Origin: Sumerlaeia bacterium
GTDB lineage: Bacteria > Sumerlaeota > Sumerlaeia > SLMS01 > JAHLLQ01
Length of the DNA stretch: 64,000 nucleotides
Assembly: GCA_040219255.1 (NCBI GenBank)
Contig: JAVJSW010000060.1
Span: 6,249 to 70,248 of the forward strand
Direction: 5' to 3'
The notes beneath the pieces are model-generated. The model saw only the letters and a list, made by a program, of their open reading frames with translations, had not been told where the DNA came from and ran no database searches. The translations under genes and the position numbers were made by a program. This document shows, piece after piece, positions 22,268-38,761 of this stretch. Numbering within the stretch: position 1 is the stretch's first letter; every line of letters starts with the position of its first letter.

Positions 22268-22298
22268 AGCGCCGCCTGGAAACCCCAAGGCACCTCTC

Positions 22299-24319: not shown

Positions 24320-24486
24320 CATGGCCGTCCCGGCCCTGCCGGCACTCTGGACGCCCACCCGGCTTGGATAATCTAAGCCGCTCGCCCGTGGGCTGGCGGG
24401 TCTGGCCCGCACGGAAACGACTTCGCCGGAACGCCTCCGCCGGCGGGTGAGGACTGACGAATCGATTCGTTCAACGCAAGCACGCT

Positions 24487-24590
24487 CATGGTTCGGGGCT
24501 CCGGTGAGGATGGGGAGAGCCTAGGCGAAGGCATGGCGAAAAGTCAAGCCTCATTCGCAAAAAATTCGCCTTGCGCCGCCGGGGCCGGGG
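24487..24590 (+). repeat. Conserved intergenic motif, copy 1 (about 100 nt, candidate structured RNA)
   Basis: Shares the GGGCTCCGGTGAGGATG...CTAGGCGAAG...GGCGAAAAGTCAA...TTCGCC core with 59583-59680. Confidence 0.4.
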
Positions 24591-24634
24591 TGGGAAGAGT
24601 GGGTTCCTCCTAATCTTCGCGTGAGACCCCAGCC

Positions 24635-26191
24635 ATGCACTCTCGCCTGCCCACCTTCGCCGTTCTCGGGATCGATGCTTTGCCCATCGATGTGGAGGTC
24701 GATTGCCAGGACGCGAACAGTATGGACACGGCGGTGTGGACGATCGTGGGGCTGGGCGACGCGGCGGTGAAGGAAAGCCGCGAGCGGGTGAAGGCGGCTC
24801 TTAAGAACAGCGGGTTCAGCGTTTCACAGCGGCGCGTGACGGTGAATCTGGCGCCGGCGGATGTGCGGAAAATGGGGGCGCATTACGATTTGCCGATCGC
24901 GCTGGGGGTGTTGACGTCGACGGCGCGCATCCCGCCCGAGCGCGCGGCGCGCTACGCGGCGGTGGGCGAACTGGGGCTCGATGGCGGCATCAAAGCGGTG
25001 CCGGGGGCGTTGTCGATGGCGGTGGGTGCGGCGCGGGCGAGGCTGGATGGGCTGATCGTGCCGGAGGACAACGCGCAGGAGGCGGCCTTCGTGGCGGAGA
25101 CGGCGGTCATTCCGGTGCGGTCGCTGGTGGAGGCGGTGGGTTTTCTGCGGGGCGAGCTGGAGATCGCGCCGGCGCGGCCGGCCCCGGCGGCGGAGGGCAA
25201 CGGCGCCCGCGATCCCTGGAACGGGGTGGACATGCGGGATGTGCGGGGCCAGGAAAACGCCAAGCGGGCGCTGGAGATTTCGGCGGCCGGCGGGCACAAT
25301 CTGCTGCTGATCGGCGCGCCGGGCAGCGGCAAGACGATGCTGGCGAAGCGGCTGCCGACGATCCTGCCGGAAATGACGTTTGGCGAGAGCCTGGAGACGA
25401 CGAAGATTTTTTCCATCGCGGGCCAGCTCGACCGGCGCGAGGGCCTGATCCGCCGCCGGCCGTTTCGCTCGCCGCACCACACCGCGTCCTCGGCGGCGAT
25501 CATCGGCGGCACGGCGTCGCCGCGCCCGGGCGAGGTGAGCCTGGCGCACAACGGCGTGTTGTTTCTCGACGAGTTTCCCGAGTTCGACCGGCGGGTGCTC
25601 GAGGTGCTGCGGCAACCGCTCGAGGACGGCGTGGTGCAGATCAGCCGGGCGCAATTGTCACTGTCCTTTCCGGCGAACTTCATCCTCTTCGCGGCGATGA
25701 ATCCGTGCCCCTGCGGGTACTTCGGGGCGGAACGGGGCGAGCGGCGCTGCACCTGCAATCCGATGCAGATCACGCGCTACCGGGGCAAAATCAGCGGCCC
25801 GCTGCTCGACCGCATCGACCTGCACGTGGATGTGGCGCCGGTGGCCATCGAGGATCTGCACCGGCGTGCCGAGGGCGAGCCCAGCAAGACGGTGCGCGCC
25901 CGGGTGCAATCGGCCCGCGCGCGCCAGCAGGAGCGCTTTCGCGACCGCGAGAGCCTGCACTGCAACGCGCAAATGCTGCCCGCCGATATGCGGCGGTTCT
26001 GCGAGCTGGATGGGCCGAGCGAGGCGCTGCTGGAGCAGGCGATGAAAGCGCTCGACCTCTCGGCCCGGGCCTACGACCGCATCCTGAAAGTCGCCCGCAC
26101 CATCGCCGACCTGGACGGCCGCGACGCCATCGCCCCCGAACACATCAGCGAGGCGGTGGGGTACCGGACGTTGGACCGGGGGGTGGGGTGA
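24635..26191 (+). CDS. comM: YifB/ComM family Mg-chelatase-like AAA+ ATPase
   Basis: N-terminal Lon-like subdomain, 'LLLIGAPGSGKTMLAKRL' Walker A, and C-terminal 'ARAYDRILKVARTIADLDG'. Confidence 0.85.
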   Translation: MHSRLPTFAVLGIDALPIDVEVDCQDANSMDTAVWTIVGLGDAAVKESRERVKAALKNSGFSVSQRRVTVNLAPADVRKMGAHYDLPIALGVLTSTARIPPERAARYAAVGELGLDGGIKAVPGALSMAVGAARARLDGLIVPEDNAQEAAFVAETAVIPVRSLVEAVGFLRGELEIAPARPAPAAEGNGARDPWNGVDMRDVRGQENAKRALEISAAGGHNLLLIGAPGSGKTMLAKRLPTILPEMTFGESLETTKIFSIAGQLDRREGLIRRRPFRSPHHTASSAAIIGGTASPRPGEVSLAHNGVLFLDEFPEFDRRVLEVLRQPLEDGVVQISRAQLSLSFPANFILFAAMNPCPCGYFGAERGERRCTCNPMQITRYRGKISGPLLDRIDLHVDVAPVAIEDLHRRAEGEPSKTVRARVQSARARQQERFRDRESLHCNAQMLPADMRRFCELDGPSEALLEQAMKALDLSARAYDRILKVARTIADLDGRDAIAPEHISEAVGYRTLDRGVG

Positions 26192-26218
26192 TGGGCGGTT
26201 GGTCGGACTCTGGAGCGA

Positions 26219-26728
26219 TCACCCCCGGCCCATCCAGCCTTCCACTTCGGCGCGCCACAGTTCGGCGTCGAGGCGGATGGGCAGGAAGGCTTCGAAGAGG
26301 TCGTTGATAAGCATGGCGAGGTGCTGGATGGCCTGGACGCGGAGAGCCATGTATTCGTCGGCGTCGGCGACTTTGGGTACGGGGAGCTTCATGGACTTCA
26401 TGTCGAAGGTTTCGCCGTCGAGGGTGAAGTTCCAGACGGCGTCCTGGGCTTTCATTTCGACCTTGCCGCGGATGAGGCGTTTGCCTTGGCGGAGAGCGGC
26501 TTCGACTTCCGGGGCGGCGCTGGCTTCGTCGCCGGCGAGGGTGACTTTGGTGGCTTCGCCGGTGTCGCTGGCGAAGACCATGGGACCCATGAGGGCGAGG
26601 GTGAGGCCGGGTTCGCTGGCGGGGGGATCGAGAGTGCCCTGGGATGAGCGCACGCACAGATAGGTGAGGAAGTCGGGGCCGAGCGTGGCGTAACGCTCCA
26701 TCACTTCGAGGTTGGACATTTGAGCCAT
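26219..26728 (-). CDS. Hypothetical protein (169 aa)
   Basis: ATG at 26728; coding-like composition; no domain recognised. Confidence 0.45.
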   Translation of the reverse strand: MAQMSNLEVMERYATLGPDFLTYLCVRSSQGTLDPPASEPGLTLALMGPMVFASDTGEATKVTLAGDEASAAPEVEAALRQGKRLIRGKVEMKAQDAVWNFTLDGETFDMKSMKLPVPKVADADEYMALRVQAIQHLAMLINDLFEAFLPIRLDAELWRAEVEGWMGRG

Positions 26729-26780
26729 GGGGAGGGTTTTCGCCTTCTTGAACTGCGGTGGGTGTGACGCCGGGGGCCGG

Positions 26781-28415
26781 CTACTGTCTCGGGTAACCGG
26801 TGACGCCGGTGTTCTTGGGGGGAGTGGGGGCTTCCGGTTCTTGATAGACGGGGAAAAGGAATTGGAGGATGGCGGGAAAGCGGTCGGCCCAGGCGTTTTC
26901 GTTGTGTTTGGCGTGATAGGCGACGTGGTGCTGGAAGCCGGGGCCGATGGCGTAGCCGTTGGCGATCAGGGCGTCGCGGGCTTCGTAGGTTTCGTCCACG
27001 CCGTCGTCCTTGATGTCGGGCGCGGGGAATTGAAATTCGCTGACGGTGCCGCTGTCCATGTAGATTCGGATGTCGCGGGGTTCGTCGTATCGCAGACGGC
27101 GGAGCGTTTCGCCGTCGCCGCGCGAGCCACCGGCCTGGGTGATCCAGTAGGCGGGTGAGACGAAGGCGTGGTGCTTGGCGAAGTCCGGGTGCTCCCAGGC
27201 GAGATAGGTGGAGAAGAGGCCGCCCATGCTGCTGCCGCAGGTGGCGACGTGTTCGCGGCCTTCGAGGAGGCGGTAGTTCTCACGCATATAGGCCATGACG
27301 GTGTCCTGATAGAAGGCGGCCATTTTGTCGGCTTCGCCCTGGCCGATCACGAGGCTGGCGTAGGGAGGCAGGTAATCCTGGAGGCGGCTGGGGCCGCTGC
27401 GCACGCCGACGATGATGCATTCGCGGATAAGGCCGTTGCGCATCAGCCAGTCGGCGGTCTTGTCCGCCTGCCAAGAGGTGCCGGAAATGCCCTCGACGAA
27501 CCAGGTGAAGCTGTTCTCGCCATCGTGCATGAAGAGAACGGGATAGTGTTTGCCGGTGTTTTCTTGGTAGCCGCGGGGTGTGTAGATGTACAGGGGGCGT
27601 TGCAGACCGGGGCGGAAATCGGGGAAGTCGGCGACCTTCGCGACGTGCGACGGGGAAACACTGGCGGGGGGCTCGTAGTTGAAGATCTGGCCGTCCTGGA
27701 GCCAAAGGCTGGCCAGAGCGGTTTCATACCAGCTTTCGCCGGGGGGCGCGTCCATGTTGGCGCCGTCGTTGAGTTCGATGAAGAAGCGCCAGGTCTGACC
27801 GACGGGTGGAAGATCGCGGAGGTGGGCAGTCCAGAGGCGTTCGCCGTCGTGCCGTCCGGGGCCGGAATCGGTCATCTGGATTCGCATCACGACGGCCCCG
27901 CGGCTGTTGAGAATGGCGAGCGCGGGGGACTTGGCGCCACTGTGGTAGCGCAGAAACCCGTCGCGCTTGGCTGGCAGCGGACCCTCGACGGTCATGGCGC
28001 GGGGCCGTCCGTCGAGGAAGGTGGAGTTGCTGCCCTCATAGAGGGACTGCGGTCCTCCGTCGAGGCGCAGGTAACGGTAACTCAACTGCTGCCCGGGCTC
28101 GACCTCGAGTTCGACGAACCAGAGCGGATCGGAGGGCGTATAGCTGGTGGGGGAGAGTTTGAGGGCCTTGAGGAATTCGCCGCCGCCGAGTTCGGGGATG
28201 TTGCCCAGGACGTAGATATTCTGGCCGTAGTCGGTCAGGAAGCGGGCTTCGAGGCGGACGGGCTCGGTGGCCGGGCCGCGGGAATCGGTGGTGGACGTCT
28301 TCGGGGCCGGTGCCTCGGCGGCCGGCGTTTCAGCGGGCGCCAGGCTCGCCAGTGCCAGAAAAAAGAAAACGATCAGTGGGCTAAGGGGAAAGTGCTGCAT
28401 GGGTAAGTGCGTCAT
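26781..28415 (-). CDS. Secreted esterase (PF00756-type alpha/beta hydrolase) with N-terminal CBM20/CBM48-like starch-binding domain
   Basis: 'YPVLFMHDGEN' and 'GSSMGGLFS' nucleophile elbow; N-terminal 'YVLGNIPELGG...WFVELEV...YRYLRLDGG'; signal peptide after the ATG at 28415. Confidence 0.7.
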   Translation of the reverse strand: MTHLPMQHFPLSPLIVFFFLALASLAPAETPAAEAPAPKTSTTDSRGPATEPVRLEARFLTDYGQNIYVLGNIPELGGGEFLKALKLSPTSYTPSDPLWFVELEVEPGQQLSYRYLRLDGGPQSLYEGSNSTFLDGRPRAMTVEGPLPAKRDGFLRYHSGAKSPALAILNSRGAVVMRIQMTDSGPGRHDGERLWTAHLRDLPPVGQTWRFFIELNDGANMDAPPGESWYETALASLWLQDGQIFNYEPPASVSPSHVAKVADFPDFRPGLQRPLYIYTPRGYQENTGKHYPVLFMHDGENSFTWFVEGISGTSWQADKTADWLMRNGLIRECIIVGVRSGPSRLQDYLPPYASLVIGQGEADKMAAFYQDTVMAYMRENYRLLEGREHVATCGSSMGGLFSTYLAWEHPDFAKHHAFVSPAYWITQAGGSRGDGETLRRLRYDEPRDIRIYMDSGTVSEFQFPAPDIKDDGVDETYEARDALIANGYAIGPGFQHHVAYHAKHNENAWADRFPAILQFLFPVYQEPEAPTPPKNTGVTGYPRQ

Positions 28416-28445
28416 GGGCGACCTGCCGAGAGTGTGGAGTGCCAA

Positions 28446-29381
28446 TCACTGGGACGAAAAATCGCGCAGCCGTTCGGCCCGGGCGAGGCCTTCGATGACA
28501 GCGGGATCGACGTCCGGAGCCAATTGTTTCGCCAACCGGATTTCGCGGGCCATATCGAGATCTTCGTTGCTGGCCAGACTGTCCGTTCCCAAGTACACCG
28601 GAACGCCGGCACGAAGCAATCGGGACAATGGAAATTCTTCGCGGCCAAAATAAATGTGCGTTCCCGGGCACAGTACCACGCGGCACCGCGACCGCCTGAG
28701 CACCATGATGTCCATTTCGGAAAGGTCGTTGCAGTGGACCAGCAGGGTGCGCGCCCCGAGCAGCCCGAGCGTCGCCAGATAGCGCACCGGCGACAGCCCC
28801 GGTGGCCTCCACCCGGGAGGCAGCAGATTGCGGTCCGACAGGAATTCGTAAAGCGGCCCGGTGCCGAAGAGGAGCATTTCGGTTTCCTCGGCCGTTTCCG
28901 CGCAGTGGATGCAGATCCATTCGCGCAGCATGGAAGCGGTGGAGAGAGCGCCGAGCAGCAGGGGTTCGGTGGTGGTGTAGGGGGCGTGGGGCGAGAGGCC
29001 GAAGCGCAGACCGCGCGGCAATGGGCCGTGGGCGCGGCGCTTGACGAGCACGTCGCTGAGGTGATGATCCGCGCGGGCGGGATCGAACTGAATTAGTTCG
29101 CGGAAGATGATGCCGGGGATCGGGTCGGCGCGTCGGGCGGCTTCACTGGTGCCCATGCTCTCGATATCCAGCAGGGCCGTGGTGCCGGTTTCGCGGAGGC
29201 GTTTGAGGCCGAACGCCGCTGCGCGCTCGCTTTCGGCCGGCGGGCGTTTGCGTTTGGCGTCGACGATGCGGTCGAGCCATTCGACAAAGTCGAGCCCGGG
29301 GGGAATGGCTCCTCTCAGATGACCAAGCTCCAGGTGGCAATGGGCGTTGAGGTAACCGGTTGTGTCGTTTTCGATAGCCAT
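28446..29381 (-). CDS. Metal-dependent amidohydrolase (aminofutalosine/nucleoside deaminase-like)
   Basis: 'NAHCHLELGHL' metal-binding HxH motif; 'LVHCNDL'; ATG at 29381. Confidence 0.65.
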   Translation of the reverse strand: MAIENDTTGYLNAHCHLELGHLRGAIPPGLDFVEWLDRIVDAKRKRPPAESERAAAFGLKRLRETGTTALLDIESMGTSEAARRADPIPGIIFRELIQFDPARADHHLSDVLVKRRAHGPLPRGLRFGLSPHAPYTTTEPLLLGALSTASMLREWICIHCAETAEETEMLLFGTGPLYEFLSDRNLLPPGWRPPGLSPVRYLATLGLLGARTLLVHCNDLSEMDIMVLRRSRCRVVLCPGTHIYFGREEFPLSRLLRAGVPVYLGTDSLASNEDLDMAREIRLAKQLAPDVDPAVIEGLARAERLRDFSSQ

Positions 29382-29477
29382 TGGCGCTTGCTTTTGTCAT
29401 AGGGTGGTGACGACAGTGAGTTGCAGCAACGAGTTCCGCTTGCCCCGAACTGACACCATGCCTGAACAGAAGCCGTT

Positions 29478-31007
29478 ATGATGACTTCCCACCTGTCACT
29501 TTGTCGCGGCGGCCTTGGCCTGCTCGCAAGCCTTACTCTCATCACAGGAGTATTTGCGACCTTGGAGCCGGAAGAAGAGATCGTTCCCGACGCGCCCGCG
29601 CCGCTGCTCGACCGGCCCACGCCGCCGGGCGCGCCATCGCTACGCGAGTGGTCCGGCAAGAGCATCTACTTTCTGATGATCGACCGATTCGCCGATGGCG
29701 ATCCGACGAACAACGCGGCCCACGGATTCGGGCCTGAGCCCGACAACCCGCGAGGCTGGCGGGGGGGCGATCTGCGAGGCCTCATCGATAAGCTGGATTA
29801 CATCGAGGGCATGGGCTTCGACGCGATCTGGATCACGCCCATTTACCGCCAGAACAAGCCGCAAAGCTACCATGGCTACTGGGCCTGGGACTTCTACGAT
29901 GTCGATGGGCATTTTGGAACCATGCGGGACGTGGTGGAATTGCGCGAGGCGATGCACAAGCGCGGCATGGCGCTGATGATCGATGTGGTGGCGAACCACA
30001 CGGGCGATTTCCGCTACCTGCCCGGCGATTACGAGGAGGGCGCGGCGCCGCCCTTCGACAAGCGCGAGTGGTTCAATCTGAACGGACCGATCAAGGATTT
30101 CAACAATCAGGCGGATGTGGAGAGCGGCGAACTGTCCAGCCTGGACGACATCAACCAGAATCACCCGGAGGCCCGGGCCGAACTGCTCAATACGGTTCGC
30201 TGGCTGCGAGAGCAAACCGGGGCCGATGGCTTCCGCATCGATACAGTGAAGCATGTCCCCAAAGACTTCTGGGCCGAGTACAACGCGGCCGCCGGGGTTT
30301 TCTGTCTGGGCGAAGTGCTCCATGGCGACGCCCGGTATGTGGCGCCCTATCAGGACGTTCTCGATGGGCTGCTGGATTTCGCGGTGTACTACGCCTCCGA
30401 CCGGGTTTTTGGGCGGGATGCTCCGATGACGGATCTCGCGCACGAGTTGTCGAAGGACGAATTGTACCGCGAGCCGCGGCTTCTGGCGCCATTCCTGGAC
30501 AACCACGACGTGCCGCGCTTTTTGTCGAAGGTGCATGCGGAGAAGTCGGAACAGTTGAGACGATTGAAGTTGGGCCTTATGTTCACCTTCACCGTACGCG
30601 GTATGCCCGTATTGTACTATGGGACCGAGCAAGCGTTCTCTGGCGGGATGGACCCCTATAACCGGGAAATGATGGTCTTCGATCCCACTCATCCGGTTTA
30701 CGGGTTCGTGGCGCGGCTCAATGAAACCCGCCGCAAGGTGCCGGCGCTGCGCTGGGGGTCGACAAAGGTGCTGGTGGCGACGGAAACGACGATGGTGATC
30801 GAGCGCGTCACGGACCAGGGAGAGTCCGCCTATGTGGTTCTGAACAACGGCGACACGGAGGCGAGGGTGGCCTTTCCGGTCAAAGTGGCCAATGGACAGA
30901 CGCTCTACGACCACTTCGGCAACGCAACGCCGGCGCGGGTCGAGTACGGGTTCGTGCGGGTCGGCGTGGATCGGCGCTGCGGGGCCGTGTTCGCGCCGGG
31001 AAATTGA
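29478..31007 (+). CDS. Secreted alpha-amylase (GH13)
   Basis: 'IDRFADGDPTNN', 'GFRIDTVKHV', 'LGEVLH', 'FLDNHDVPRF'; signal peptide. Confidence 0.85.
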   Translation: MMTSHLSLCRGGLGLLASLTLITGVFATLEPEEEIVPDAPAPLLDRPTPPGAPSLREWSGKSIYFLMIDRFADGDPTNNAAHGFGPEPDNPRGWRGGDLRGLIDKLDYIEGMGFDAIWITPIYRQNKPQSYHGYWAWDFYDVDGHFGTMRDVVELREAMHKRGMALMIDVVANHTGDFRYLPGDYEEGAAPPFDKREWFNLNGPIKDFNNQADVESGELSSLDDINQNHPEARAELLNTVRWLREQTGADGFRIDTVKHVPKDFWAEYNAAAGVFCLGEVLHGDARYVAPYQDVLDGLLDFAVYYASDRVFGRDAPMTDLAHELSKDELYREPRLLAPFLDNHDVPRFLSKVHAEKSEQLRRLKLGLMFTFTVRGMPVLYYGTEQAFSGGMDPYNREMMVFDPTHPVYGFVARLNETRRKVPALRWGSTKVLVATETTMVIERVTDQGESAYVVLNNGDTEARVAFPVKVANGQTLYDHFGNATPARVEYGFVRVGVDRRCGAVFAPGN

Positions 31008-31079
31008 GTTGGCGCGGCCCGAGGGCTTCGCAATCTTCTTGATTCGAACCAGCTTTGGGGCTCATAGTCGTCCAACCGA

Positions 31080-31164
31080 GCGAGCGTGGCGGAATTGGCA
31101 GACGCACCAGGTTTGCGTCCTGGCGGGGAAACCCGTGGGAGTTCGAGTCTCCCCGCTCGCACCA
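31080..31164 (+). tRNA. Class II tRNA (Leu-type body, 13-nt variable arm, A73, encoded CCA) whose anticodon loop reads UUUGCGU, giving anticodon UGC (Ala) as read
   Basis: Manual fold: acceptor GCGAGCG/CGCTCGC; D-arm GGCGGAATTGGCAGACGC (near-identical to bacterial tRNA-Leu); anticodon stem CCAGG/CCTGG; T-arm GGGAG-TTCGAGT-CTCCC. Confidence 0.7.
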
Positions 31165-31179
31165 TGGCTTCTCGATGTC

Positions 31180-31836
31180 ATGTATTTTGAACTTCCCGGA
31201 CTCTACACGCCGTCCCTCGAGTCGCTCGTTTTCAAGGCGCTGGAGTCCTGGCATTTCGCGGCTCATTATCTCGGTCTGGGCCTGATCGTCTGGCTTTTTG
31301 TACAAGCCGTCCAGCGGGGCTATGACTGCTTGCGCTCGGACGAAGCGCTGGTCACTCCGGCCCACCCCTCGCGTTTTTTCTTTCACGGTTTTCGCCGCGG
31401 ACCGCTGTGGCAACTGGGGCTGCTCTGGCTGCTGATGGTTACTGTCGCCCTCACTCTCCACCAGACCGCCATTGAGCACCAGGACACGACCCGGACCAAG
31501 GACTTGCTGTGCGCGGCCTGGAACGTAGTCCACATGGGCTCGATGCTCCTGTGGGTTCTGGCGGCGGGCATGGTTCTGGTGCCGCGCGTGACGAACCGCT
31601 GGAAGTTGCTCCTGCCGCTGTGGACTGGCATTCCAATTCTGGATATTCTGACGGATCTGATCTTCTGGTATGTTCGGCACCGTGCGCTGGTATTCATCGC
31701 GCCGGACGATCGCGCGGACACGTGGGCCCTCGCCTACAATCCGGCGCTGTTGCTATGGATGGCGGCGGCCGCGGTGACGCTCTTGCTGGCCGTCGCGCGC
31801 CTGAAGCGCATCCCGCCCACGCAGTGGCCACGCTAG
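31180..31836 (+). CDS. Hypothetical polytopic membrane protein
   Basis: ATG at 31180 just after the tRNA; several hydrophobic segments; the upstream part of the 314 aa ORF overlaps the tRNA and is rejected. Confidence 0.4.
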   Translation: MYFELPGLYTPSLESLVFKALESWHFAAHYLGLGLIVWLFVQAVQRGYDCLRSDEALVTPAHPSRFFFHGFRRGPLWQLGLLWLLMVTVALTLHQTAIEHQDTTRTKDLLCAAWNVVHMGSMLLWVLAAGMVLVPRVTNRWKLLLPLWTGIPILDILTDLIFWYVRHRALVFIAPDDRADTWALAYNPALLLWMAAAAVTLLLAVARLKRIPPTQWPR

Positions 31837-33077
31837 CTCTGGTGGGATTTCCTTAGTCTCCGCCACCACCCCCGGTTCCTCCCGAACAGGTAGCTGTGGA
31901 ACAGGAAGATGCCGACGAACACGGCGGTCAGCAGGTCGACGCAGACCGTCAGCAGGATCACGATGACCTTGGTGCCGCTCTTGTGGCGGGGCATCTCGCG
32001 CAGGCGCAGCAGCGTCTTCCAGTCCATGATAGACAGTCCCACCTGGAGCAGCACCGCCGCGAGCACCGCGTTCGGGATGCGGCTGACGATGGGTCCGAAA
32101 CCGATGAGGATGACCAGCAGGATGAGGGCGTGGCTGGCCGCGGCGAGGCGTGTGCGGGCGCCGGAGGTGATGTTGACGACGGTGCAGCTTGTGGTGCCGG
32201 CGCAGGGGACGCCGCCGAAGAGTCCGGCCATCAGGTTGCCAAGGCCTTGGCCCGCGAGGACGCGATTGGGCTGCTGATGGCTGTCGGTCATTTCGTCGGC
32301 GATCAGGGAAGTGATGAGACTGTCGAGGGCTCCCATGAGGCCCAGGATGCTGGCGGAGAGGAGAACCTCGGCGAGGCGGAGGCCGGTCATGGCCTCGGGC
32401 CAGGGAAAGTGCGGCGTGGGAAGGCCGCGGGGGATGGCGCCCACGGTTTCGACGTGGAGACCGAAGCCGATCGCCACGCCGGTTCCCACGATCACGCCGA
32501 GGAGCGGGCCCGGGATCCAATCGGTGACGCGCTTGGGGAAGAAGTAGATGGCGGCGAGGGTCACGAGTCCGAGGACGATGGCGGGAGTGAAGGGATCGGC
32601 GAGCCAGGAGGGCAGGGTGAGAAGGGCGAGGAGGGGCCTGCCCGGTGAGGCGTGGCCCAGGAGCGGGCCGATCTGAAGAAGGACGATGATAAGGCCGATG
32701 CCGGACATGAAGCCGGAGACGACTTCGTGAGGGACGAAGCGAAGGAGGTTTCCGGCCCGGCCGGCGGCCAGAAGCATTTGAATCAAACCGGCCAGCACGA
32801 CGATCAGGAAGCCGATGCCGGGTTTATCCGAGTAGGGGGTGAGGACGGCGAGGAGGACGACGGTCATGGGGCCTGTGGGGCCGGTGACGAGGGTCGGGCA
32901 GCCTCCGACGATGGCGGAGAAGAATCCGGCGGCGATGGCGCCGTAGAGGCCGGCCTCGGGGCCGAGGCCGGAGGCGACGCCAAAGGCGATGGCGAGCGGC
33001 AGGGCCACGACGGCGGTGGTCAGGCCGGCGGTGAGATCGGCTCTGAGCGTTTTCCAGGAGTACGAAAAGGCCAACAT
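31833..33077 (-). CDS. SulP-family anion permease (sulfate/bicarbonate transporter core, no STAS domain)
   Basis: 'LTAGLTTAVVALPLAIAFGVASGL' SulP signature region; ATG at 33077. Confidence 0.75.
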   Translation of the reverse strand: MLAFSYSWKTLRADLTAGLTTAVVALPLAIAFGVASGLGPEAGLYGAIAAGFFSAIVGGCPTLVTGPTGPMTVVLLAVLTPYSDKPGIGFLIVVLAGLIQMLLAAGRAGNLLRFVPHEVVSGFMSGIGLIIVLLQIGPLLGHASPGRPLLALLTLPSWLADPFTPAIVLGLVTLAAIYFFPKRVTDWIPGPLLGVIVGTGVAIGFGLHVETVGAIPRGLPTPHFPWPEAMTGLRLAEVLLSASILGLMGALDSLITSLIADEMTDSHQQPNRVLAGQGLGNLMAGLFGGVPCAGTTSCTVVNITSGARTRLAAASHALILLVILIGFGPIVSRIPNAVLAAVLLQVGLSIMDWKTLLRLREMPRHKSGTKVIVILLTVCVDLLTAVFVGIFLFHSYLFGRNRGWWRRLRKSHQS

Positions 33078-33127
33078 GTGTCCTTTGGAAAGACGGGGTT
33101 GGCTGGCGATTTCCCGGCGGCGCGTGA

Positions 33128-35080
33128 TTACCCGTTCGACAAAGCGGCGATGCCTTGTCGTTTGTAGCGGCAGAGAGCCTGCACGAGAGAGGCGCTTGTG
33201 GGCTGAGAAGCCACCACCTGCGCTTCCACGCCGAGCGTTCCCAATGCCTGGGCGACACCGTCGCTGATCGCGGCCAGCACGACGCCCGATAGCAAGTCAC
33301 GTGCGTCTTCTTCCTCTAAGACACGGGCGAAGGCGTCGACGGCGGAGATGGAGAAGAAGGTGACGGCGTCGACCTCCTCGTCGCGCAGGGCGTGGGCGAG
33401 GCGCAGGGCCTGGGAAGCGTCGGGAACGCTCTCGTAGAGGGGAAGAATGAGGACGCTGGCGCCACGGTTTTCGAGTTCCTCGGCGAGGTCGCCGTGCTCG
33501 CCGACACTTTCCACGATGGTGACGCGGGAGACGGACAGATCGGGGCCGAAGATGTCGCGCATGGCTTTGGGGGTGAAGGGCGGGTGGATCGCATGGGCCA
33601 CCACGTTGCGTTCGCGCAACGCGTCGAGGGTCGCTCCACCGGCGGCGAGGATGCGGGCGCGGGAGGAAAGAACGCGCAGGTCGAGGCCGACGCTCCAGAG
33701 GGCGTCGAAGAAACTCTGTACCCCACGGGGACTGTTGAAGACCAAGTGTGTCGATTGGGCCAGGTCGTCCTGGAGGGCTTCGAGTTCGGAGGAGAGGCCC
33801 GCCACGGGGCTGTGGGTGGTCAGGGGGAAGGCGCGGGCTTCAGCGCCGCCTTCGCGCAATTGGAGCAGGGTTTCCTCGGCTCGGTGGCGCGAACGGGTCA
33901 CGGCCACGCGCCATCCGAAGAGGGGTTGGCGCTCGAAAAAGTTGAGTTCTTCGCGCAGGTTGACGACTTCGCCGACGACGAGGAGGGCGGGGGCTTCGAC
34001 GCCTTCGCCGCGGATGCGTTCGGGAAAGTCGGCGACGGTGGCGACACAGACGCGCTGGCGGCTGGTGGTGCCCCATTGGATGCAGGCGACGGGCTGGCCC
34101 TGGGGCCGGCCGCCGGAGAGCAGGCCATCGCGGATGTCGTCGAGAGTCGCCATGGGCATGAGAATGACGAGTGTATCGGCGGCGGCGCAGACCGCTTCCC
34201 AGTCGACCTCCGAGGTGAAAAGGGCGCCTTGGGGGGCGTCGACGCGGGCGGCGCCGAAGGGGGCGCTGGTGCCGGTGTCTTCGTTGGTGGTTAGAATGGG
34301 GGTGGGGGGTCGCTCGGTGGCTTCCTCCACTTCCACGTTTTCGTTGGAGAGAAGGCGCATGATGGCGCTTTCGCCCGATTCGTGGTCACGGGCGTGGCGG
34401 CGGCGGATTTTGATACCGGGTTTGCGGCGCTTCATCATCTCGGCGGTCCGGGCGCCCGACGCCATGGCCTCCATGATGGCGGCGTGGGAGATCTTGGAGG
34501 TCGCCCGCGAGCCGTCTTCCTCGTGCATGCGGGGCGAGGAATCGGGCGCGCCCGGGCGTTGCGGCGTCAAAGCGCCGGAGGGGGGGAAGTCTTCGCCGTG
34601 TGGCGCCTGCTGGTGGCGAGGCAATTTGTGAACGGGTTCGACGCGGCCGTGGAGGACGAGGACGCTGCCGGCGAGGCCCCGCTGAAGGACGGGGATTCCG
34701 GCGTAGGCGGGGACGGCGAGGACGCTGCTGATTCCTGGGACGACCTCGACGGGGATGCCGGCTTCGCGGCAGGCGAGGGCTTCTTCGCCGCCCCGGCCGT
34801 AGAGGTAAGGATCGCCGCCTTTGAGGCGGACGGTGCGTTTGCCGCCGCGGGCGTGCTGGATCAGAGCCTCGTTGATTTCCGTCTGGCTCATGGAGGGTTT
34901 TCCGCCGCGCTTGCCAACGTAGATGCGCTCCGCGTCAGGGGGCGCGAGATCGAGCAAGTCCTGGCCGATCAAGGCGTCGTAGAGAACGACGTCGGCACCG
35001 ACGAGGATGTCGCAGGCTCGGCGTGTGAGAAGACCCGGATCGCCGGGACCTCCTCCCACAAGAAAGACTTTTCCCGCCAT
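33128..35080 (-). CDS. cobA: Uroporphyrinogen-III C-methyltransferase / uroporphyrinogen-III synthase fusion (CobA-HemD) with an unusual low-complexity insertion of about 140 aa in the methyltransferase domain
   Basis: 'VFLVGGGPGDPGLLT' and 'GGDPYLYGRGGEE' match CobA; 'QWGTTSRQRV' also matches; C-terminal HemD-like; insertion maps to about 34211-34645; ATG at 35080. Confidence 0.8.
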   Translation of the reverse strand: MAGKVFLVGGGPGDPGLLTRRACDILVGADVVLYDALIGQDLLDLAPPDAERIYVGKRGGKPSMSQTEINEALIQHARGGKRTVRLKGGDPYLYGRGGEEALACREAGIPVEVVPGISSVLAVPAYAGIPVLQRGLAGSVLVLHGRVEPVHKLPRHQQAPHGEDFPPSGALTPQRPGAPDSSPRMHEEDGSRATSKISHAAIMEAMASGARTAEMMKRRKPGIKIRRRHARDHESGESAIMRLLSNENVEVEEATERPPTPILTTNEDTGTSAPFGAARVDAPQGALFTSEVDWEAVCAAADTLVILMPMATLDDIRDGLLSGGRPQGQPVACIQWGTTSRQRVCVATVADFPERIRGEGVEAPALLVVGEVVNLREELNFFERQPLFGWRVAVTRSRHRAEETLLQLREGGAEARAFPLTTHSPVAGLSSELEALQDDLAQSTHLVFNSPRGVQSFFDALWSVGLDLRVLSSRARILAAGGATLDALRERNVVAHAIHPPFTPKAMRDIFGPDLSVSRVTIVESVGEHGDLAEELENRGASVLILPLYESVPDASQALRLAHALRDEEVDAVTFFSISAVDAFARVLEEEDARDLLSGVVLAAISDGVAQALGTLGVEAQVVASQPTSASLVQALCRYKRQGIAALSNG

Positions 35081-35302
35081 GCTCCACAAACCTCGGCGTA
35101 GGGATCTCGCTCGTCCCGATGGATGACGAGGTTTGACATAGAAGAAGACGCGCATGTGCGCAAGAGGCATCCCGGGGCTTTGCGAGCCTTTCGGAAGCGG
35201 TGCGGCGCGCGCGGCGCATGGACCGCCGAAAAAGCTCGCGCGGGTCTGGCCTTTGCTGTAGGAAGACAGGCAGATGATTCTTCGAAAAGGACCCGACCCA
35301 AC

Positions 35303-35545
35303 ATGACCAGTGAGACCCCGCCCCAAGGCTATACCCTGATCCATGTGGCCGAGATGCCGGAGATGGCCCACCTGTTCCGCGATGTTCTGTCGTCCCAGGG
35401 CTTCGACGTGTACGAGACGGACAATGACAGCAACGGACTCTTCCGGACGGAATGGGGATCGCGGATTTACGTGCGCGACGCCCAGGCCACCAAAGCCACC
35501 GCGGCTCTGGACGAGTACCGTAACGAGAATCAGCCGAGCGCCTGA
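35303..35545 (+). CDS. Small DUF2007-like protein (80 aa), hypothetical
   Basis: ATG at 35303; about 80 aa, in the size range of DUF2007 proteins. Confidence 0.4.
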   Translation: MTSETPPQGYTLIHVAEMPEMAHLFRDVLSSQGFDVYETDNDSNGLFRTEWGSRIYVRDAQATKATAALDEYRNENQPSA

Positions 35546-35580
35546 GACGAAGAAAACCCCGCTCTGGAGAGAGCGGGGCG
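35546..35580 (-). terminator. Rho-independent terminator downstream of rplY
   Basis: Hairpin ccccgctctggagagagcgggg followed on the minus strand by gttttcttcg. Confidence 0.5.
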
Positions 35581-35617
35581 AAAAGAGGCTTAAGCGATTT
35601 GGAGGAGGGCTTGGGGT

Positions 35618-36262
35618 TTAGGCTTCGCCCTCGGTGCCCAGGCCCGCCTGGCCCGTCTCGGGAGAGGCGGCTGTGGCGGTGTCTTTGTCCTTGGGAACGA
35701 CAGAGATCACGGTGGCACTGGCTTCGTTGATGTAGGTAACGCCCTCGAAGCGAGGCAAGTCGCTGACGTGGATCGCCTGATTGAGCTGGATGTCGGTCAT
35801 GTCGATTTCGATGTGACCGGGAATGTCGCGGGGGAAGCCGGAGACTTCGACTTCGTGGAGGACCTGCTCGATGAGGCCGCCGGCCTTGACGCCAGCGCAC
35901 TTCTGGCGGTTCTCGATGTGGATCGGAACGGACAGGTAGATGGTCTCGCCGCGGGTGATGCGGAGCAAATCGACGTGAAGGATCTTGTTCTTCACGGGTT
36001 CGCGTTGAACGTCCTTGATGTAGGCCTCGGCGGATTCGCCGCCTTCGACTTTGACGTCGATGACGGAGGTGTCGCCATGGAGCGCCTGGAGGAGGACGAC
36101 CATCTCATGCTCACTGAGGGTGAGGGAGACGGGCTCGGCGTGCCCGCCATACATGATGGCGGGGACTTCCCCGGCGGCGCGGAGTTTCTTTGCTTTTTCT
36201 TTGCCCGTATTCTGGCGAAGCGTGGCGTTGAGAGTGAAACTTTGGGTGGCGGTTGCGGCCAT
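35618..36262 (-). CDS. rplY: 50S ribosomal protein L25 / general stress protein Ctc (long form)
   Basis: 'LRQNTGKEKAKKLRAAGEVPAIMYGG' L25 N-terminus; ATG at 36262. Confidence 0.85.
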   Translation of the reverse strand: MAATATQSFTLNATLRQNTGKEKAKKLRAAGEVPAIMYGGHAEPVSLTLSEHEMVVLLQALHGDTSVIDVKVEGGESAEAYIKDVQREPVKNKILHVDLLRITRGETIYLSVPIHIENRQKCAGVKAGGLIEQVLHEVEVSGFPRDIPGHIEIDMTDIQLNQAIHVSDLPRFEGVTYINEASATVISVVPKDKDTATAASPETGQAGLGTEGEA

Positions 36263-36356
36263 ATCCTCTTGTCCTTTCCCCTGCACGGAGCCGGTTCGGT
36301 TCCGTTTGACACATGCTGGATTCAGTCAGCGGCCGTGGGCCGTTCGCGGAAATCGC

Positions 36357-37322
36357 TTAGCCGATTTCGTCGCGGAACAGGGCGCTGACAGAAGTGTGCC
36401 GATGGATGCGGTCGATCGCCGACGCGAGGAGCGGAGCGATGTTGAGCAGTCTCACCTTCCCGGACAGGGCGCTCTTGTCTTGAGCGATGGAGTTTGTGAC
36501 AATCACTTCCTTGAACGGGGCTTCCGCCAGACGCTCAAGAGCGGGGCCGGAGAACACGCCGTGGGTCGCGATGGCGTACACGTCGCGGGCACCGGCGTCC
36601 CGCAAAGCCCGGGCTGCATTACAGATTGTGCCCGCCGTGTCAATCATATCGTCGAAGATTACCACGTCGTTGTTTTCCACGTACACCTTGCCGATGATCG
36701 CCATGACCTCGCTCTCGTTGGGGCGGGGCCTGCGTTTGTCGATAATCGCCAGCGGCGTTTTGATCATGTCGGCGAAGTTGCGGCTGCTCTTCACGTTGCC
36801 CACGTCGGGGCTGACGACGCAGGCGTTCTTGAGACCGAGTTCGCGGATGCACTTGACCAGAATCGGGTCCGCTTCCAGGTGATCGAGGGGCAAATCGAAG
36901 AAGCCCTGAATCTGGGCCGAATGCAGGTTTAGCGCCAGCACGCGGTCGGCGCCGGCGGTGGCGATCATGTTGGCGACGAGCTTGGCGGAGAGGGCGACAC
37001 GGCCCTGGCTCTTGCGATCCTGACGCGCGTAGCCGTAGTACGGGATGACCGCCGTGATGCGGTCGGCGCTCGCGCGGCGGGCGGCGTCGATGGTCAGCAG
37101 CAACTCCATCAGGTTTTCGTTCACCGGGTTCGAAGTGCTCTGGACGATGAACACGTCGCGGCCGCGCAGGTTGTTGCCGATCTTGACGAATGTTTCGGCA
37201 TCGCTGAAGCGTTCCACCATCAGATCGCCCATGGGAACCGCCAGTTCGTGGCAGATATCCATCGTCAGCGACCGGGAGGCGGAACCCGGCAGGATTACGG
37301 GGGGATCGTTGTAGGTGCTCAT
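36357..37322 (-). CDS. prs: Ribose-phosphate pyrophosphokinase
   Basis: 'VIPYYGYARQDRK' and the 'DDMIDTAGT' PRPP-binding loop; ATG at 37322. Confidence 0.9.
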   Translation of the reverse strand: MSTYNDPPVILPGSASRSLTMDICHELAVPMGDLMVERFSDAETFVKIGNNLRGRDVFIVQSTSNPVNENLMELLLTIDAARRASADRITAVIPYYGYARQDRKSQGRVALSAKLVANMIATAGADRVLALNLHSAQIQGFFDLPLDHLEADPILVKCIRELGLKNACVVSPDVGNVKSSRNFADMIKTPLAIIDKRRPRPNESEVMAIIGKVYVENNDVVIFDDMIDTAGTICNAARALRDAGARDVYAIATHGVFSGPALERLAEAPFKEVIVTNSIAQDKSALSGKVRLLNIAPLLASAIDRIHRHTSVSALFRDEIG

Positions 37323-37423
37323 AATAACCGCTGGCGCCCATCGCCTGAAGTCGAAGTCCGGGAGGGACGCCACCACGACCGCGCGCCGGTGCGCAATGGG
37401 GCTTTTTGAGTTTTTCGTTACTT

Positions 37424-37737
37424 GGATGAACCACAGAGATGACACAGAGGAGCGAGGTTGCACAGAGGTCGGGTGCAGTCAGGATCGGAGCATTCCAGAA
37501 AACGGACACACAGCTCAAAGAATCGCGAAGGCTGAGGGTGGATAGAATCAGTGGTTCGCGGGTAAGGAACGGGATTTGACTTGTTATCCAAAAACCAAAG
37601 AAAACTCCTGGTTTGTTCCTTGTAATCTGCGTGAGCTTTCTGATTTCCGAGTTTTTTCTCTGAAAAAGCAGCCCGTAGGCTCCGAAGGTTTTCTGATTTT
37701 CTGCGAAAACTCTATCCTCTGCGTCCTCTGTGGTTAT
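37424..37737. repeat. Intergenic element of about 310 bp with imperfect terminal inverted repeats (CACAGAGG-repeat arm), copy 3, upstream of prs
   Basis: Left arm 37424-37475 (ccacagagatgacacagaggagcgaggttgcacagagg) and inverted right arm 37700-37737; AT-rich interior; related copies at 60884-61197 and 63594-63903. Confidence 0.45.
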
Positions 37738-38693: not shown

Positions 38694-38761
38694 GGGAAAG
38701 GGTTCCGAGGGAGAAATGGCGTACCCACCCTGAGCAAAATGGGCACCGGACGCCGCGGCGG

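Follow-up and report, generated by a model that had tools for sequence, protein, structure and literature searches.

The nev-tRNAs of nematodes are class II molecules with glycine or isoleucine anticodons, conserved across nematodes and leucylated in experiments. They share with the tRNA described here a leucine-type class II body joined to a non-leucine anticodon, and differ from it in being eukaryotic, conserved and of demonstrated leucylation, none of which applies to our gene. Among bacterial examples, the tRNAProX molecules are conserved over many species and paired with a dedicated ProRS paralogue. Found in Streptomyces and Kitasatospora (tRNAProA/N/T), they combine the identity of one amino acid with the anticodon of another, alanine included (PMC10404621; PMC11415595), and present unusual bases at position 33 (PMC11415595). 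The allo-tRNAs of Acidobacteria, Clostridia and Proteobacteria, proposed as missense suppressors, have a long variable arm, an anticodon in conflict with their identity, which is serine (or alanine), and an 8/4 or 9/3 acceptor/T-stem geometry, and frequently occur in association with mobile elements or toxin-antitoxin systems (PMC5389517). In humans, anticodon variants of tRNA-Leu, tRNA-Ser and tRNA-Ala are mistranslating variants present in the population (PMC11028032, PMC11415595). A bacterial tRNA with a leucine body and an alanine anticodon is absent from the reviews of natural mistranslating and non-canonical tRNAs (PMC11415595, PMC7609411, PMC5389517, PMC9976931), and our search of the literature on Sumerlaeia returned nothing relevant.

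Here we analyse a 64-kb stretch of DNA (hereafter, the window) from a Sumerlaeia metagenome-assembled genome (MAG), which holds a tRNA gene of precisely this composition. At face value, a leucine tRNA reading alanine codons would be a further case among the very few natural mistranslation systems of bacteria, and a preliminary description of the window had proposed it as a candidate of this kind. The anatomy and the logic of that proposal were right, namely a leucine body that would read alanine codons; its conclusion, a natural mistranslating tRNA, is left unsupported by a second assembly of the locus, in which the anticodon is UAG.

The tRNA gene and its surroundings

The gene, intact, 85 nt long, of class II and with an encoded CCA, is the single tRNA that ARAGORN calls in the whole window, under the label “tRNA-Ala (tgc)” (Table 1). 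It matches the Rfam tRNA model RF00005 from end to end (positions 1-71 of 71; E 1.9e-8; gathering score 29). The type of gene in which tRNA-Leu(UAA) is split by a group I intron is ruled out by this contiguous and complete cloverleaf.

The acceptor stem (GCGAGCG/CGCTCGC) has 7 bp, the D stem (GCG/CGC) 3 bp, and the anticodon stem is CCAGG/CCTGG. The variable arm, CGGGGAAACCCGT, is 13 nt long and closed by a GNRA loop, the T arm (GGGAG-TTCGAGT-CTCCC) has a canonical loop, and the discriminator A73 is the A at 31161, ahead of the CCA. The D loop, GAATTGGCAGA, departs from that of the Escherichia coli tRNA-Leu only at G13 and C20, which in E. coli are A and U, respectively. With the anticodon loop, TTTGCGT, at 31112-31118, positions 34-36 are T31114, G31115 and C31116; U33 is normal and G37 is present. 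In all these respects, from the stems to the UGC anticodon and the near-identity of the D arm to that of bacterial tRNA-Leu, the first reading of the gene holds.

Furthermore, all the elements of the LeuRS hinge are present, i.e., A15:U48, G18G19, A20a and, in the T loop, U54, U55, C56 and A58; the contacts considered are G18:U55, G19-C56 and U54:A58, and U48 is the T at 31135, which adjoins the T stem on its 5′ side. For the E. coli LeuRS, the anticodon and the variable arm are dispensable, and A73 is the major leucine determinant (PMC9976931). The window tRNA thus carries a body of leucine identity, for which charging by LeuRS is predicted. The alanine determinant G3:U70 is absent, as previously noted (the pair is G3:C70), and so is the class I body with a short variable loop that characterizes tRNA-Ala, the 13-nt variable arm standing in its place. 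The NGC anticodon is the only trait of tRNA-Ala in the molecule and the sole reason for the ARAGORN label.

The nearest E. coli sequence, found in 5413 of 5426 genomes, is an annotated tRNA-Leu that aligns over all 85 nt with 78.8% identity, has the same type of anticodon arm (ACCAG-UUUAGGU-CUGG) and sits between tRNA-Met and tRNA-Gln; we take it to be leuW, of the metT operon. Compared with the canonical tRNA-Leu(UAG) of a Phycisphaerae MAG (JBJXFK010000300; L038 6557-6638), the differences are limited to compensated stem changes and positions 35-36. The class II body, the D arm, the type of anticodon stem, G37, the variable hairpin with a GNRA loop, the T arm and A73 are common to the window gene and to bacterial tRNA-Leu(UAG), in E. 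coli as in Phycisphaerae, whereas positions 35-36 are AG in these genes and GC in the window.

Table 1. Features of the tRNA locus, in window coordinates.
Feature	Position	Strand	Basis
tRNA gene; tRNA-Leu(UAG)-type body, anticodon UGC in the window	31080..31164	+	ARAGORN; Rfam RF00005, 52.6 bits; alignment with the Logan allele, Phycisphaerae tRNA-Leu(UAG) and annotated E. coli tRNA-Leu
Anticodon positions 34-36, TGC in the window; 31115-31116 are GC against AG in the Logan assembly, which gives TAG (Leu)	31114..31116	+	Sequence and assembly comparison
Inverted repeat GACGCA (31101-31106) / TGCGTC (31114-31119), 7-nt spacer	31101..31119	+	Sequence; MFE fold
Patch with all seven differences between the assemblies	31036..31129	.	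Base-by-base comparison, 35,574 nt
Substitutions 5′ of the tRNA (Logan>window): 31036 C>T, 31037 G>T, 31074 C>A, 31079 T>A (position -1 of the tRNA)	31036, 31037, 31074, 31079		Base-by-base comparison
Substitutions inside the tRNA (Logan>window): 31115 A>G, 31116 G>C, 31129 C>A (variable-arm tetraloop GCAA>GAAA)	31115, 31116, 31129		Base-by-base comparison
Alpha-amylase family gene, 509 aa, ending 72 nt 5′ of the tRNA	29478..31007	+	Pfam PF00128, E 9.5e-63
Orphan ORF, 218 aa, starting 15 nt 3′ of the tRNA	31180..31836	+	No Pfam match
Weak promoter-like hexamers TTGATT (31039-31044) and CATAGT (31063-31068), 18-nt spacer	31039..31068	+	By eye, putative
Weak terminator-like hairpin and TATTTTG directly 3′ of the tRNA, overlapping the ATG of the next ORF	31163..31182	+	Scan: 4 such sites against 1.4 expected, weak

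The context of the tRNA is one of housekeeping genes. The product of the upstream gene is named [quoted passage not shown] by NCBI and has no relative above 57% identity, and the sole database match of the downstream orphan ORF is itself (RLY93_14915, Sumerlaeia MAG), so that no orthologous locus was obtained for a comparison of synteny. The ten surrounding genes are those for RF3, ComM, an esterase, an amidohydrolase, the amylase, the orphan ORF, SulP, CysG/HemD and L25, together with an ORF at 26219-26728 that has no Pfam match; no synthetase paralogue, toxin-antitoxin system, integrase, transposase, regulator or tRNA-dependent enzyme was recognized among them by Pfam. As for transcription signals, a scan of 30700-32000 for sigma-70-type consensus promoters gave no site, the two promoter-like hexamers of Table 1 falling below its threshold.

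The UAG allele in a second assembly

The Logan assembly of the SRA run SRR26147846 covers 35,574 nt of the window, which could be compared base by base in two segments (22465-39381, 16,917 nt, and 3709-22365, 18,657 nt). The two assemblies are identical at 35,567 of these positions, and the seven substitutions that separate them all fall within 94 nt. The Logan anticodon loop reads TTTAGGT (UUUAGGU), and ARAGORN calls this copy tRNA-Leu(tag). A leucine anticodon has the form NAG or YAA, as UAG in the Logan assembly does and UGC in the window does not; the Logan allele is a member of the tRNA-Leu(UAG) family in every respect. The UGC anticodon is, then, private to one assembly, while an independent assembly of the same strain has UAG. 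A different loop sequence in other data, TTTAGGT against TTTGCGT, is what the preliminary description had set in advance as speaking against its own proposal.

Since Logan contigs are built from the reads of SRR26147846 alone, the UAG haplotype may be taken as supported by reads. Moreover, the exact amylase, amidohydrolase and DUF5117 proteins are each found on one Logan contig only, in this same run and no other, and the MAG therefore probably derives from the same reads as the Logan contig.

The patch extends over the promoter-proximal region, the 5′ leader, the anticodon and the loop of the variable arm, its first two substitutions adjoining the promoter-like hexamer TTGATT. From n(w/L)^(n-1), our own approximation, the probability that seven sites placed at random share 94 of 35,574 nt is about 2e-15; counting adjacent pairs as single events raises it to about 2e-10. 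It had been argued that two substitutions are too many for a simple error; both in fact belong to this tight cluster of seven private changes. All three intragenic changes lie in loops and none in stems or in conserved D-loop bases, as is expected of changes filtered by selection rather than of random noise, and the one at 31129 preserves the GNRA tetraloop. Read from Logan to window, four of the seven are GC>AT, in keeping with a derived window allele, and five are transversions, near the two-thirds expected from random replacement. A donor for the patch, either a paralogue or a template repeat of the diversity-generating-retroelement type, was not found when 31000-31180 was compared with the window by BLAST (matches of at most 13 nt), and a k-mer repeat check for a templated origin of the five substitutions outside the anticodon gave nothing convincing.

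Leucine-type tRNAs with UGC in other phyla

In a collection of 185,579 species genomes and in 241 million metagenome records (JGI), the scans returned 41 and 22 loci, respectively, in none of which the body of the window tRNA carries UGC. The source genome itself is not among the matches, and the genome collection masks a few stretches, so that the missing Sumerlaeia match is no evidence of absence. The 41 genome matches cannot all be read as UGC tRNAs, given that most are intron-split tRNA-Leu(UAA) genes, in which the 5′ exon ends at U34 and is followed by the intron and a distant 3′ exon (shown for L006); Rfam support for the intron in these matches stays below the gathering score.

About a dozen intact leucine-type tRNAs with UGC do occur in other phyla. 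Acidobacteria and peat and soil metagenomes contain a family of leucine-like tRNA(UGC) genes (L002, L045, L047, L054, L055, L058, L060, L062, L064 and L051) with strong covariation and an invariant UGC, whose members have a leucine-type D arm, a long variable arm and A73, and lack G3:U70. Most of them present an unusual UCCGA T loop, with C55, a base that may hinder charging by LeuRS. Each is preceded by a small ORF on the same strand (wHTH-like or DUF5343-like), for which Pfam, PHROGs and PADLOC offered no label beyond a weak DUF5343 match, and several are adjoined by IS1595 transposases. The existence of a maintained family implies that leucine-type tRNA(UGC) molecules can be kept in nature. 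The window tRNA shares with it the D-arm type, the long variable arm, A73, the absence of G3:U70 and the UGC itself, and differs in its T loop (UUCGAGU), in having the 509-aa alpha-amylase gene upstream and in the absence of a transposase nearby; beyond the leucine type, the two are unrelated.

The other systems described above also differ from the window gene. Unlike tRNAProX, it has a normal U33 and no partner gene, and no conservation of its UGC was found; unlike allo-tRNAs, it has a canonical 7/5 leucine body in a housekeeping context. With the human anticodon variants and the classical missense suppressors, on the other hand, it has in common a synthetase blind to the anticodon, a non-cognate anticodon that would arise by point mutation and a gene otherwise normal, and the window allele would likewise be a variant within a population and not a conserved gene. 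It is distinguished from them by the two substitutions needed, by the cluster of seven and by its origin in an uncultured bacterium, where both its presence in cells and its activity are putative.

Possible origin and decoding of the UGC allele

The two changed anticodon bases belong to one arm of an inverted repeat (Table 1) whose complementarity is complete in the window allele (6 of 6) and partial in the UAG allele (4 of 6, with TAGGTC). The minimum free energy fold of the window allele contains the repeat helix, a hairpin in competition with the D and anticodon arms, and reaches -40.2 kcal/mol, versus -39.1 for the cloverleaf; in the ensemble, the cloverleaf has a probability of 0.54 in the UAG allele and of only 0.012 in the window allele. 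The completion of an imperfect inverted repeat is the known signature of quasi-palindrome template-switch mutation (PMC7202029). The AG>GC double change fits such an event, in which the complement of the D-arm strand GACGCA would have been copied into the anticodon loop. By chance alone, a double substitution makes the repeat perfect in 1 case out of 9, and a template switch would account for only two of the seven substitutions; the five changes outside the anticodon need a second cause, for instance the import of a short segment by recombination or a patch of error-prone repair.

We give about an even chance to the reading that the locus is an ordinary chromosomal tRNA-Leu(UAG) gene, equivalent to the E. 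coli tRNA-Leu noted above, with a recent and private UGC allele. The UGC would be a derived two-base change (A35G, G36C), seen in one assembly only, very recent, and probably present in a sub-population of cells or in a second copy collapsed by the assembly. If transcribed and folded, such an allele should be charged by LeuRS, given that leucine identity in bacteria resides in A73 and the corner formed by the D and T loops and not in the anticodon, and the charged tRNA would insert leucine at GCA and GCG codons, possibly also at GCU, as a missense suppressor. TrmD requires the G36-G37 context. Because C36 abolishes this context, the UGC allele would be without m1G37, and it would also misfold more often. 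Were there no other tRNA-Leu(UAG) gene, CUA would go unread with this allele, also at one CUA codon in the PRPP synthetase gene, and the allele should be lethal, an expectation that argues either for an artefact or for an additional gene copy outside our view. A real UGC allele that is kept, as a balanced polymorphism or as a second, tandem copy merged by both assemblers, with a leucine-charged tRNA placing leucine, deliberately or tolerably, at GCA and GCG, seems to us improbable.

The codons of the window bear on these readings. GCA accounts for 77 of the 2082 alanine codons (4%) and CUA for 25 of the 1825 leucine codons (1%) in the window ORFs, where GUA, CCA and ACA make up 2%, 6% and 6% of their families; neither GCA nor CUA is avoided in these ORFs, both being used like other NNA codons. 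When the amylase is aligned with 119 homologues, its 25 GCG codons correspond to alanine in 27% and to leucine in 1% of the homologue residues, whereas its CUG and CUC codons correspond to leucine in 42-52%. Its GCA codons are only two, both in unconserved segments, and the comparison thus bears on GCG, which, to judge from this alignment, behaves as an alanine codon.

An appreciable, though less than even, probability must be assigned to the UGC allele being an artefact of assembly, consensus, polishing or some later alteration, the true gene being the tRNA-Leu(UAG) of the Logan assembly. The only independent assembly of the locus reads UAG, probably from the very reads that produced the MAG; all differences are confined to one 94-nt patch amid 35.6 kb of perfect identity; the proportion of transversions is near that of random replacement; and the loss of a CUA reader is hard to square with viability. 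Nevertheless, we know of no graph-based short-read assembler that invents substitutions, and a noisy long-read consensus would have scattered errors over all of the 35.6 kb, which is free of them. Reads of a foreign-species tRNA recruited to the locus would have brought leucine anticodons with them and would mismatch the unique upstream leader. The sparing of stems and conserved bases inside the gene and the preserved GNRA tetraloop look biological, and for the AG>GC change a specific mutational route can be named. The alternative of an evolved and maintained leucine-charged mistranslator at alanine codons, perhaps conditional, acting beside a canonical tRNA-Leu(UAG) and tRNA-Ala(UGC) located elsewhere or in tandem, is unlikely. 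It can invoke a flawless cloverleaf with an encoded CCA and all the leucine determinants defined in E. coli, the recurrence of leucine-type UGC tRNAs in other phyla, the covarying acidobacterial family among them, and the bacterial precedents of tRNAProX (PMC11415595) and allo-tRNAs (PMC5389517). Against it, UAG is present at the locus in the same strain background, so that UGC is not fixed even within the strain, and a UGC version of this body was found neither in the species genomes nor in the JGI metagenomes. The neighbours, an amylase gene and an orphan ORF, include neither a dedicated synthetase nor a regulator or mobile element; what distinguishes the acidobacterial family (the small upstream ORF, the C55 T loop, IS1595) is missing throughout; GCA is not depleted; and the change to UGC destabilizes the cloverleaf ensemble.

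Two further possibilities appear much more remote. A reassignment of GCA to leucine, with the window tRNA as its legitimate decoder, is the least probable of all, the combination of anticodon and body being its only support; the share of GCA resembles those of GUA, CCA and ACA, the GCG codons of the amylase, which a U34 tRNA could also read, align as alanine and not leucine, and the sister allele is a normal tRNA-Leu(UAG). Hardly more credible is a tRNA devoted to functions outside translation, such as leucine donation to a tRNA-dependent transferase or regulation as a tRNA-like RNA, with an anticodon that would drift freely. The indifference of LeuRS to the anticodon would permit it, and the canonical T loop, relevant to function on the ribosome and with EF-Tu, is compatible with it; nevertheless, no gene for a tRNA-dependent enzyme lies nearby, the canonical allele at the locus points to the role of a normal CUA/CUG decoder, and the drifted anticodon is not conserved. 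Whether the private UGC allele is real or an artefact, there is very probably no evolved mistranslation system at this locus.

Altogether, the sequences compared here point away from a mistranslator, with a UAG allele in the same strain background and nothing conserved in the UGC version. A general lesson is that, when anticodon and identity are in conflict in a tRNA of a MAG, interpretation must wait until reads or another assembly have been consulted. The better lead for natural decoding of alanine codons as leucine is the acidobacterial tRNA(UGC) with its small-ORF module. If the UGC allele of Sumerlaeia is real, it would show a missense-suppressor tRNA at its emergence in a wild population, which is seldom seen, and exemplify a templated double mutation within a tRNA gene. 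If, in addition, it were maintained, it would be the first bacterial leucine-for-alanine mistranslator observed as it emerges from a housekeeping tRNA-Leu(UAG) gene, in parallel with the independently evolved leucine-like tRNA(UGC) genes of Acidobacteria.

Body type and setting of the window tRNA

The only tRNA gene found by ARAGORN in the 64-kb window (sequence GCGAGCGTGGCGGAATTGGCAGACGCACCAGGTTTGCGTCCTGGCGGGGAAACCCGTGGGAGTTCGAGTCTCCCCGCTCGCACCA) is labelled tRNA-Ala (tgc), and the Rfam tRNA model matches it end to end (52.6 bits, for a gathering score of 29), the insertion corresponding to its long variable arm. The preliminary description had reported the UGC anticodon, the folding of each arm and the absence of the Ala identity element G3:U70, and all of these structural details are borne out by the sequence, ARAGORN and Rfam. 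In E. coli, the gene most similar to it is an annotated tRNA-Leu flanked by tRNA-Met and tRNA-Gln; that gene is 78.8% identical over all 85 nt and was found in 5413 of 5426 genomes. A canonical tRNA-Leu(UAG) from a Phycisphaerae MAG (JBJXFK010000300, locus L038) differs from the window tRNA only by compensated stem changes and at positions 35-36. Since the anticodon loop is UUUAGGU in both comparators, the window tRNA has, judged from sequence, the body of a tRNA-Leu(UAG), altered by A35G and G36C; it works like bacterial tRNA-Leu(UAG) and is identical to it in kind apart from two bases. It carries Leu elements defined in E. coli (A73, A15:U48, G18G19, A20a and the T-loop bases U54, U55, C56 and A58), and neither the anticodon nor the variable arm is required by E. 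coli LeuRS (PMC9976931). Because G3:U70 is absent from the body, AlaRS should not charge it.

The neighbourhood is a housekeeping one, in the order RF3, ComM, esterase, amidohydrolase, amylase, tRNA, orphan ORF, SulP, CysG/HemD and L25, and it lacks any synthetase paralogue, integrase or transposase. Of the 2082 Ala codons in 37 window ORFs, 77 (4%) are GCA, and of the 1825 Leu codons in these ORFs, 25 (1%) are CUA, shares that match those of other NNA codons in a genome of about 64% GC; CUA is present in essential genes of the window, e.g., at codon 178 of PRPP synthetase.

The ORF 3' of the tRNA was a complete orphan in the database search. For the amylase, the closest named relatives are proteins of Thermoactinomycetaceae and Ktedonobacteria (41-47% identity), two short unnamed contigs reaching 52-57%; the lack of a close Sumerlaeota protein among the database matches suggests horizontal acquisition. 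In another segment of the window, GC falls to 0.53 (0.60-0.70 elsewhere), and neither of the two Logan gene calls there (162 and 452 aa) belongs to a Pfam family; the segment may be an islet gained by horizontal transfer. A very long ORF of 2311 aa shows coding-like GC3.

Coordinates of the features (window positions unless a locus is named; L-numbers are retrieved loci)
Feature	Position	Strand	Details
Contig_3015 (L001, L065)	22465-39381		Logan assembly
Contig_5775 (L066)	3709-22365		Logan assembly
C>T	31036		Logan>window
G>T	31037		Logan>window
C>A	31074		Logan>window
T>A	31079		Logan>window
A>G	31115		Logan>window; anticodon position 35
G>C	31116		Logan>window; anticodon position 36
C>A	31129		Logan>window; variable-arm tetraloop
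Window tRNA	31080-31164	+	13-nt variable hairpin, canonical T arm, A73, encoded CCA
Acceptor stem			7 bp, G3:C70
D stem			3 bp
Anticodon stem	31107-31111, 31119-31123		CCAGG/CCTGG
Anticodon	31114-31116	+	U34 G35 C36; loop UUUGCGU
Amylase	29478-31007	+	MEQ8821526.1
218-aa ORF	31180-31836	+	MEQ8821527.1, RLY93_14915
Low-GC segment	18001-20000
2311-aa ORF	41139-48074	-
tRNA-Leu(UAG)	L038 6557-6638		intact
tRNA-Leu(UAG) 5' half	L038 5434-5470		duplicate
Acidobacterial family tRNA(UGC)	L002 1946-2035	+
Other family loci	L045, L047, L054, L055, L058, L060, L062, L064, L051
ORF 5' of family tRNA	L002 1438-1914	+
ORF 5' of family tRNA	L045 ~490-930
ORF 5' of family tRNA	L054 ~78-520
ORF 5' of family tRNA	L064 ~1840-2260	-
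ORF 5' of family tRNA	L058, L060, L025/L029, L055
Transposase-adjoining	L002 148-2311
Transposase-adjoining	L047, L062
Transposase-adjoining	L058 1872-2840
Inverted repeats	L002 148-165, 2294-2311		18 nt, imperfect
OZ252114 tRNA(UGC)	L025 178-266	-
OZ252114 tRNA(UGC)	L029 1928-2016	+
Split tRNA-Leu(UAA)	L006 4450-4762
Split, Alphaproteobacteria	L008, L013, L015, L021, L024, L027, L031		similar to L006
Split, Bdellovibrionales	L003, L007, L020, L041
Split, Eremiobacterota	L011, L019, L039
Split, Burkholderiales/Usitatibacter	L032, L033, L036
Split, others	L004, L009, L010, L012, L014, L023, L034, L042

A patch of substitutions between two assemblies

The window locus was also found in the Logan assembly of SRA run SRR26147846, where the anticodon loop of the tRNA reads UUUAGGU and ARAGORN labels it tRNA-Leu (tag). 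Over the 35,574 nt compared, the two sequences differ by seven substitutions, all inside 31036-31129, and are otherwise identical. By a simple approximation of our own, n(w/L)^(n-1), seven random sites would fall within 94 of 35,574 nt with a probability of ~2e-15, or ~2e-10 when adjacent pairs are taken as single events. The UGC anticodon therefore belongs to a narrowly confined patch that is private to one assembly, the background being otherwise clonal.

The three intragenic changes affect loop positions only: anticodon positions 35 and 36, and one base of the variable-arm tetraloop, which passes from GCAA to GAAA and keeps its GNRA type. The other four lie in the 5' leader (-1, -6) and directly 5' of a weak promoter-like TTGATT-18-CATAGT identified by eye; a consensus scan found no promoter near the tRNA. 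As no stem or conserved base is altered, the patch looks more like variation filtered by biology than like random noise, and the direction of change, GC>AT towards the window allele in four of seven cases, suggests a derived state for this allele. Within the window, the patch region has no further copy that could act as donor.

Through the anticodon change, TAGGTC (31114-31119) becomes TGCGTC and now matches exactly the reverse complement of GACGCA (31101-31106), a segment made up of the 3' strand of the D stem and A26. A quasi-palindrome matching at 4/6 positions is thereby turned into a perfect 6/6 one, for which a random double change has a chance of 1 in 9. Such perfecting is a classical signature of template-switch mutation (PMC7202029), and a single event of this kind would yield both adjacent anticodon substitutions. 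In the folding model, this D-arm/anticodon complementarity carries a cost: the predicted minimum-energy fold of the window allele is non-cloverleaf (-40.2 kcal/mol, for -39.1 kcal/mol of the cloverleaf), and the ensemble probability of the cloverleaf falls from 0.54 in the UAG allele to 0.012. Each strand of the anticodon stem is a CCWGG motif, and both lie immediately within the inverted repeat. In E. coli, crosslinking of proteins to Dcm (CCWGG) sites has been reported to stimulate template switching (PMC6357072), and the juxtaposition may be a coincidence.

Leu-type tRNAs with UGC elsewhere

A pattern combining the Leu D arm, six free bases and YTTGCR returned 41 loci in 185,579 species genomes, and a slightly stricter version 22 loci in JGI metagenomes. 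None of these loci has the window body with UGC, an absence that says little for the genome scan because it missed the source genome itself. About a dozen matches are contiguous, intact Leu-type tRNAs with UGC and A73 and without G3:U70, and their distribution among Acidobacteriota, Sphingomonadales, Rhodospirillales, Planctomycetota and unbinned contigs indicates that the combination arises sporadically in nature. In several further matches the acceptor stem is broken, which suggests pseudogenes.

Most genome matches are tRNA-Leu(UAA) genes split by an intron directly after U34, with inserts of ~200-250 nt. The exons of L006 can be picked out by eye and together restore a perfect tRNA-Leu(UAA); the Rfam group I intron model matches its insert at 26 bits (E 1.5e-4), a score lower than the gathering score, and gives no match at the gathering threshold. 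The group I intron of tRNA-Leu(UAA) is classically cyanobacterial and plastid, and the hosts found here may thus be of interest. In L038, the duplicated 5' half of tRNA-Leu(UAG) ends exactly at U34, ~1.1 kb 5' of the intact gene, the two flanking an insert with an apparent ORF; an element that inserted at the anticodon loop seems to have left this scar.

Related Leu-like class II tRNA(UGC) genes occur at ten loci, in Acidobacteria and in metagenomes from peat or soil; they comprise eight distinct sequences, and the literature searched contained no description of them. UGC and A73 are invariant, G3:U70 occurs in none, and most have an unusual UCCGA T loop (C55). All 192 of 192 base-pair cells are paired. 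Compensatory changes occur in all four variable helices and are double-sided in 10 of 24 pairs; 0 of 500 shuffles reach that level and slid controls collapse. These tRNAs look selected, possibly for Leu-for-Ala decoding or a non-ribosomal role. Each has a small ORF on the same strand, the tRNA lying 30-115 nt downstream, and the arrangement looks like a conserved two-gene module. The ORFs are of three kinds: class A (140-160 aa, coiled coil, wHTH-like segment, with an SSB-like tail ...D(E/D)DIPF in three members), class B (232-243 aa, weak DUF5343 match) and the distinct 182-aa, wHTH-like ORF of L055. None matched PHROGs, and PADLOC gave only one marginal match (Cas13a model, E 0.004), which was discounted. 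An IS1595/ISXO2-like DDE transposase adjoins the pair in four loci (three distinct sequences, L062 duplicating L047). In L002, inverted repeats enclose transposase, ORF and tRNA in a 2.16-kb unit; this 2.1-kb block is 86% identical to L047, and the tRNA may be insertion-sequence cargo. The complete Acidobacteriota chromosome OZ252114 bears two identical intact copies ~208 kb apart, each embedded in an inverted duplicate (at least 2,193 nt, 100% identical) in which a DUF5343-like ORF is found as well. Unlike this family, the window tRNA has neither the small ORF, nor the IS1595 neighbour, nor the UCCGA T loop.

Readings of the locus and predicted consequences of the UGC allele

The locus very probably holds the ordinary tRNA-Leu(UAG) gene of the organism rather than a device evolved for mistranslation. 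The preliminary description had proposed a natural mistranslating tRNA, which is not supported, given that the second assembly reads UUUAGGU at the same locus; the genome scan, which missed the source genome, and the metagenome scan gave no Sumerlaeia counterpart with Leu body and UGC. An evolved, maintained mistranslator is unlikely. A non-translational role is highly improbable and codon reassignment extremely so, both being essentially without support. That UGC is a real, recent allele, or possibly a second copy collapsed by assemblers, is about as likely as not: graph assemblers are not known to invent bases, constrained positions are spared by the changes, and there is a specific mutational rationale for the anticodon change. 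Somewhat less probably, UGC came about as an artefact in the source assembly or through some subsequent alteration: it is seen in that assembly only, the proteins that were looked up trace to one sequencing run, and fixation of UGC would eliminate the reader of CUA, a codon that essential genes use.

The window tRNA is unlike the conserved bacterial mistranslation systems, tRNAProX and allo-tRNAs. tRNAProX is paired with a dedicated ProRS paralogue. In the allo-tRNAs, the stem geometry is 8/4 or 9/3 and the identity is that of Ser (PMC5389517), and some natural mistranslating tRNAs show an unusual G33 or A33 (PMC11415595). As a mismatched tRNA, it is closer to anticodon-variant mistranslating tRNAs and to classical missense suppressors (PMC11028032, PMC11415595). 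A bacterial Leu-body tRNA with an Ala anticodon is absent from four reviews of natural mistranslating and non-canonical tRNAs (PMC11415595, PMC7609411, PMC5389517, PMC9976931), and would be a fresh example of a kind already known.

Should the UGC allele exist and be expressed, its leucylation would follow from established rules, as would the decoding of GCA and GCG, and also of GCU if U34 is cmo5U, the modification present at this position in E. coli tRNA-Leu(UAG) and tRNA-Ala(UGC). It would probably lack m1G37, because TrmD requires a G36-G37 context. Such an allele would be a missense suppressor, probably deleterious to the cell.
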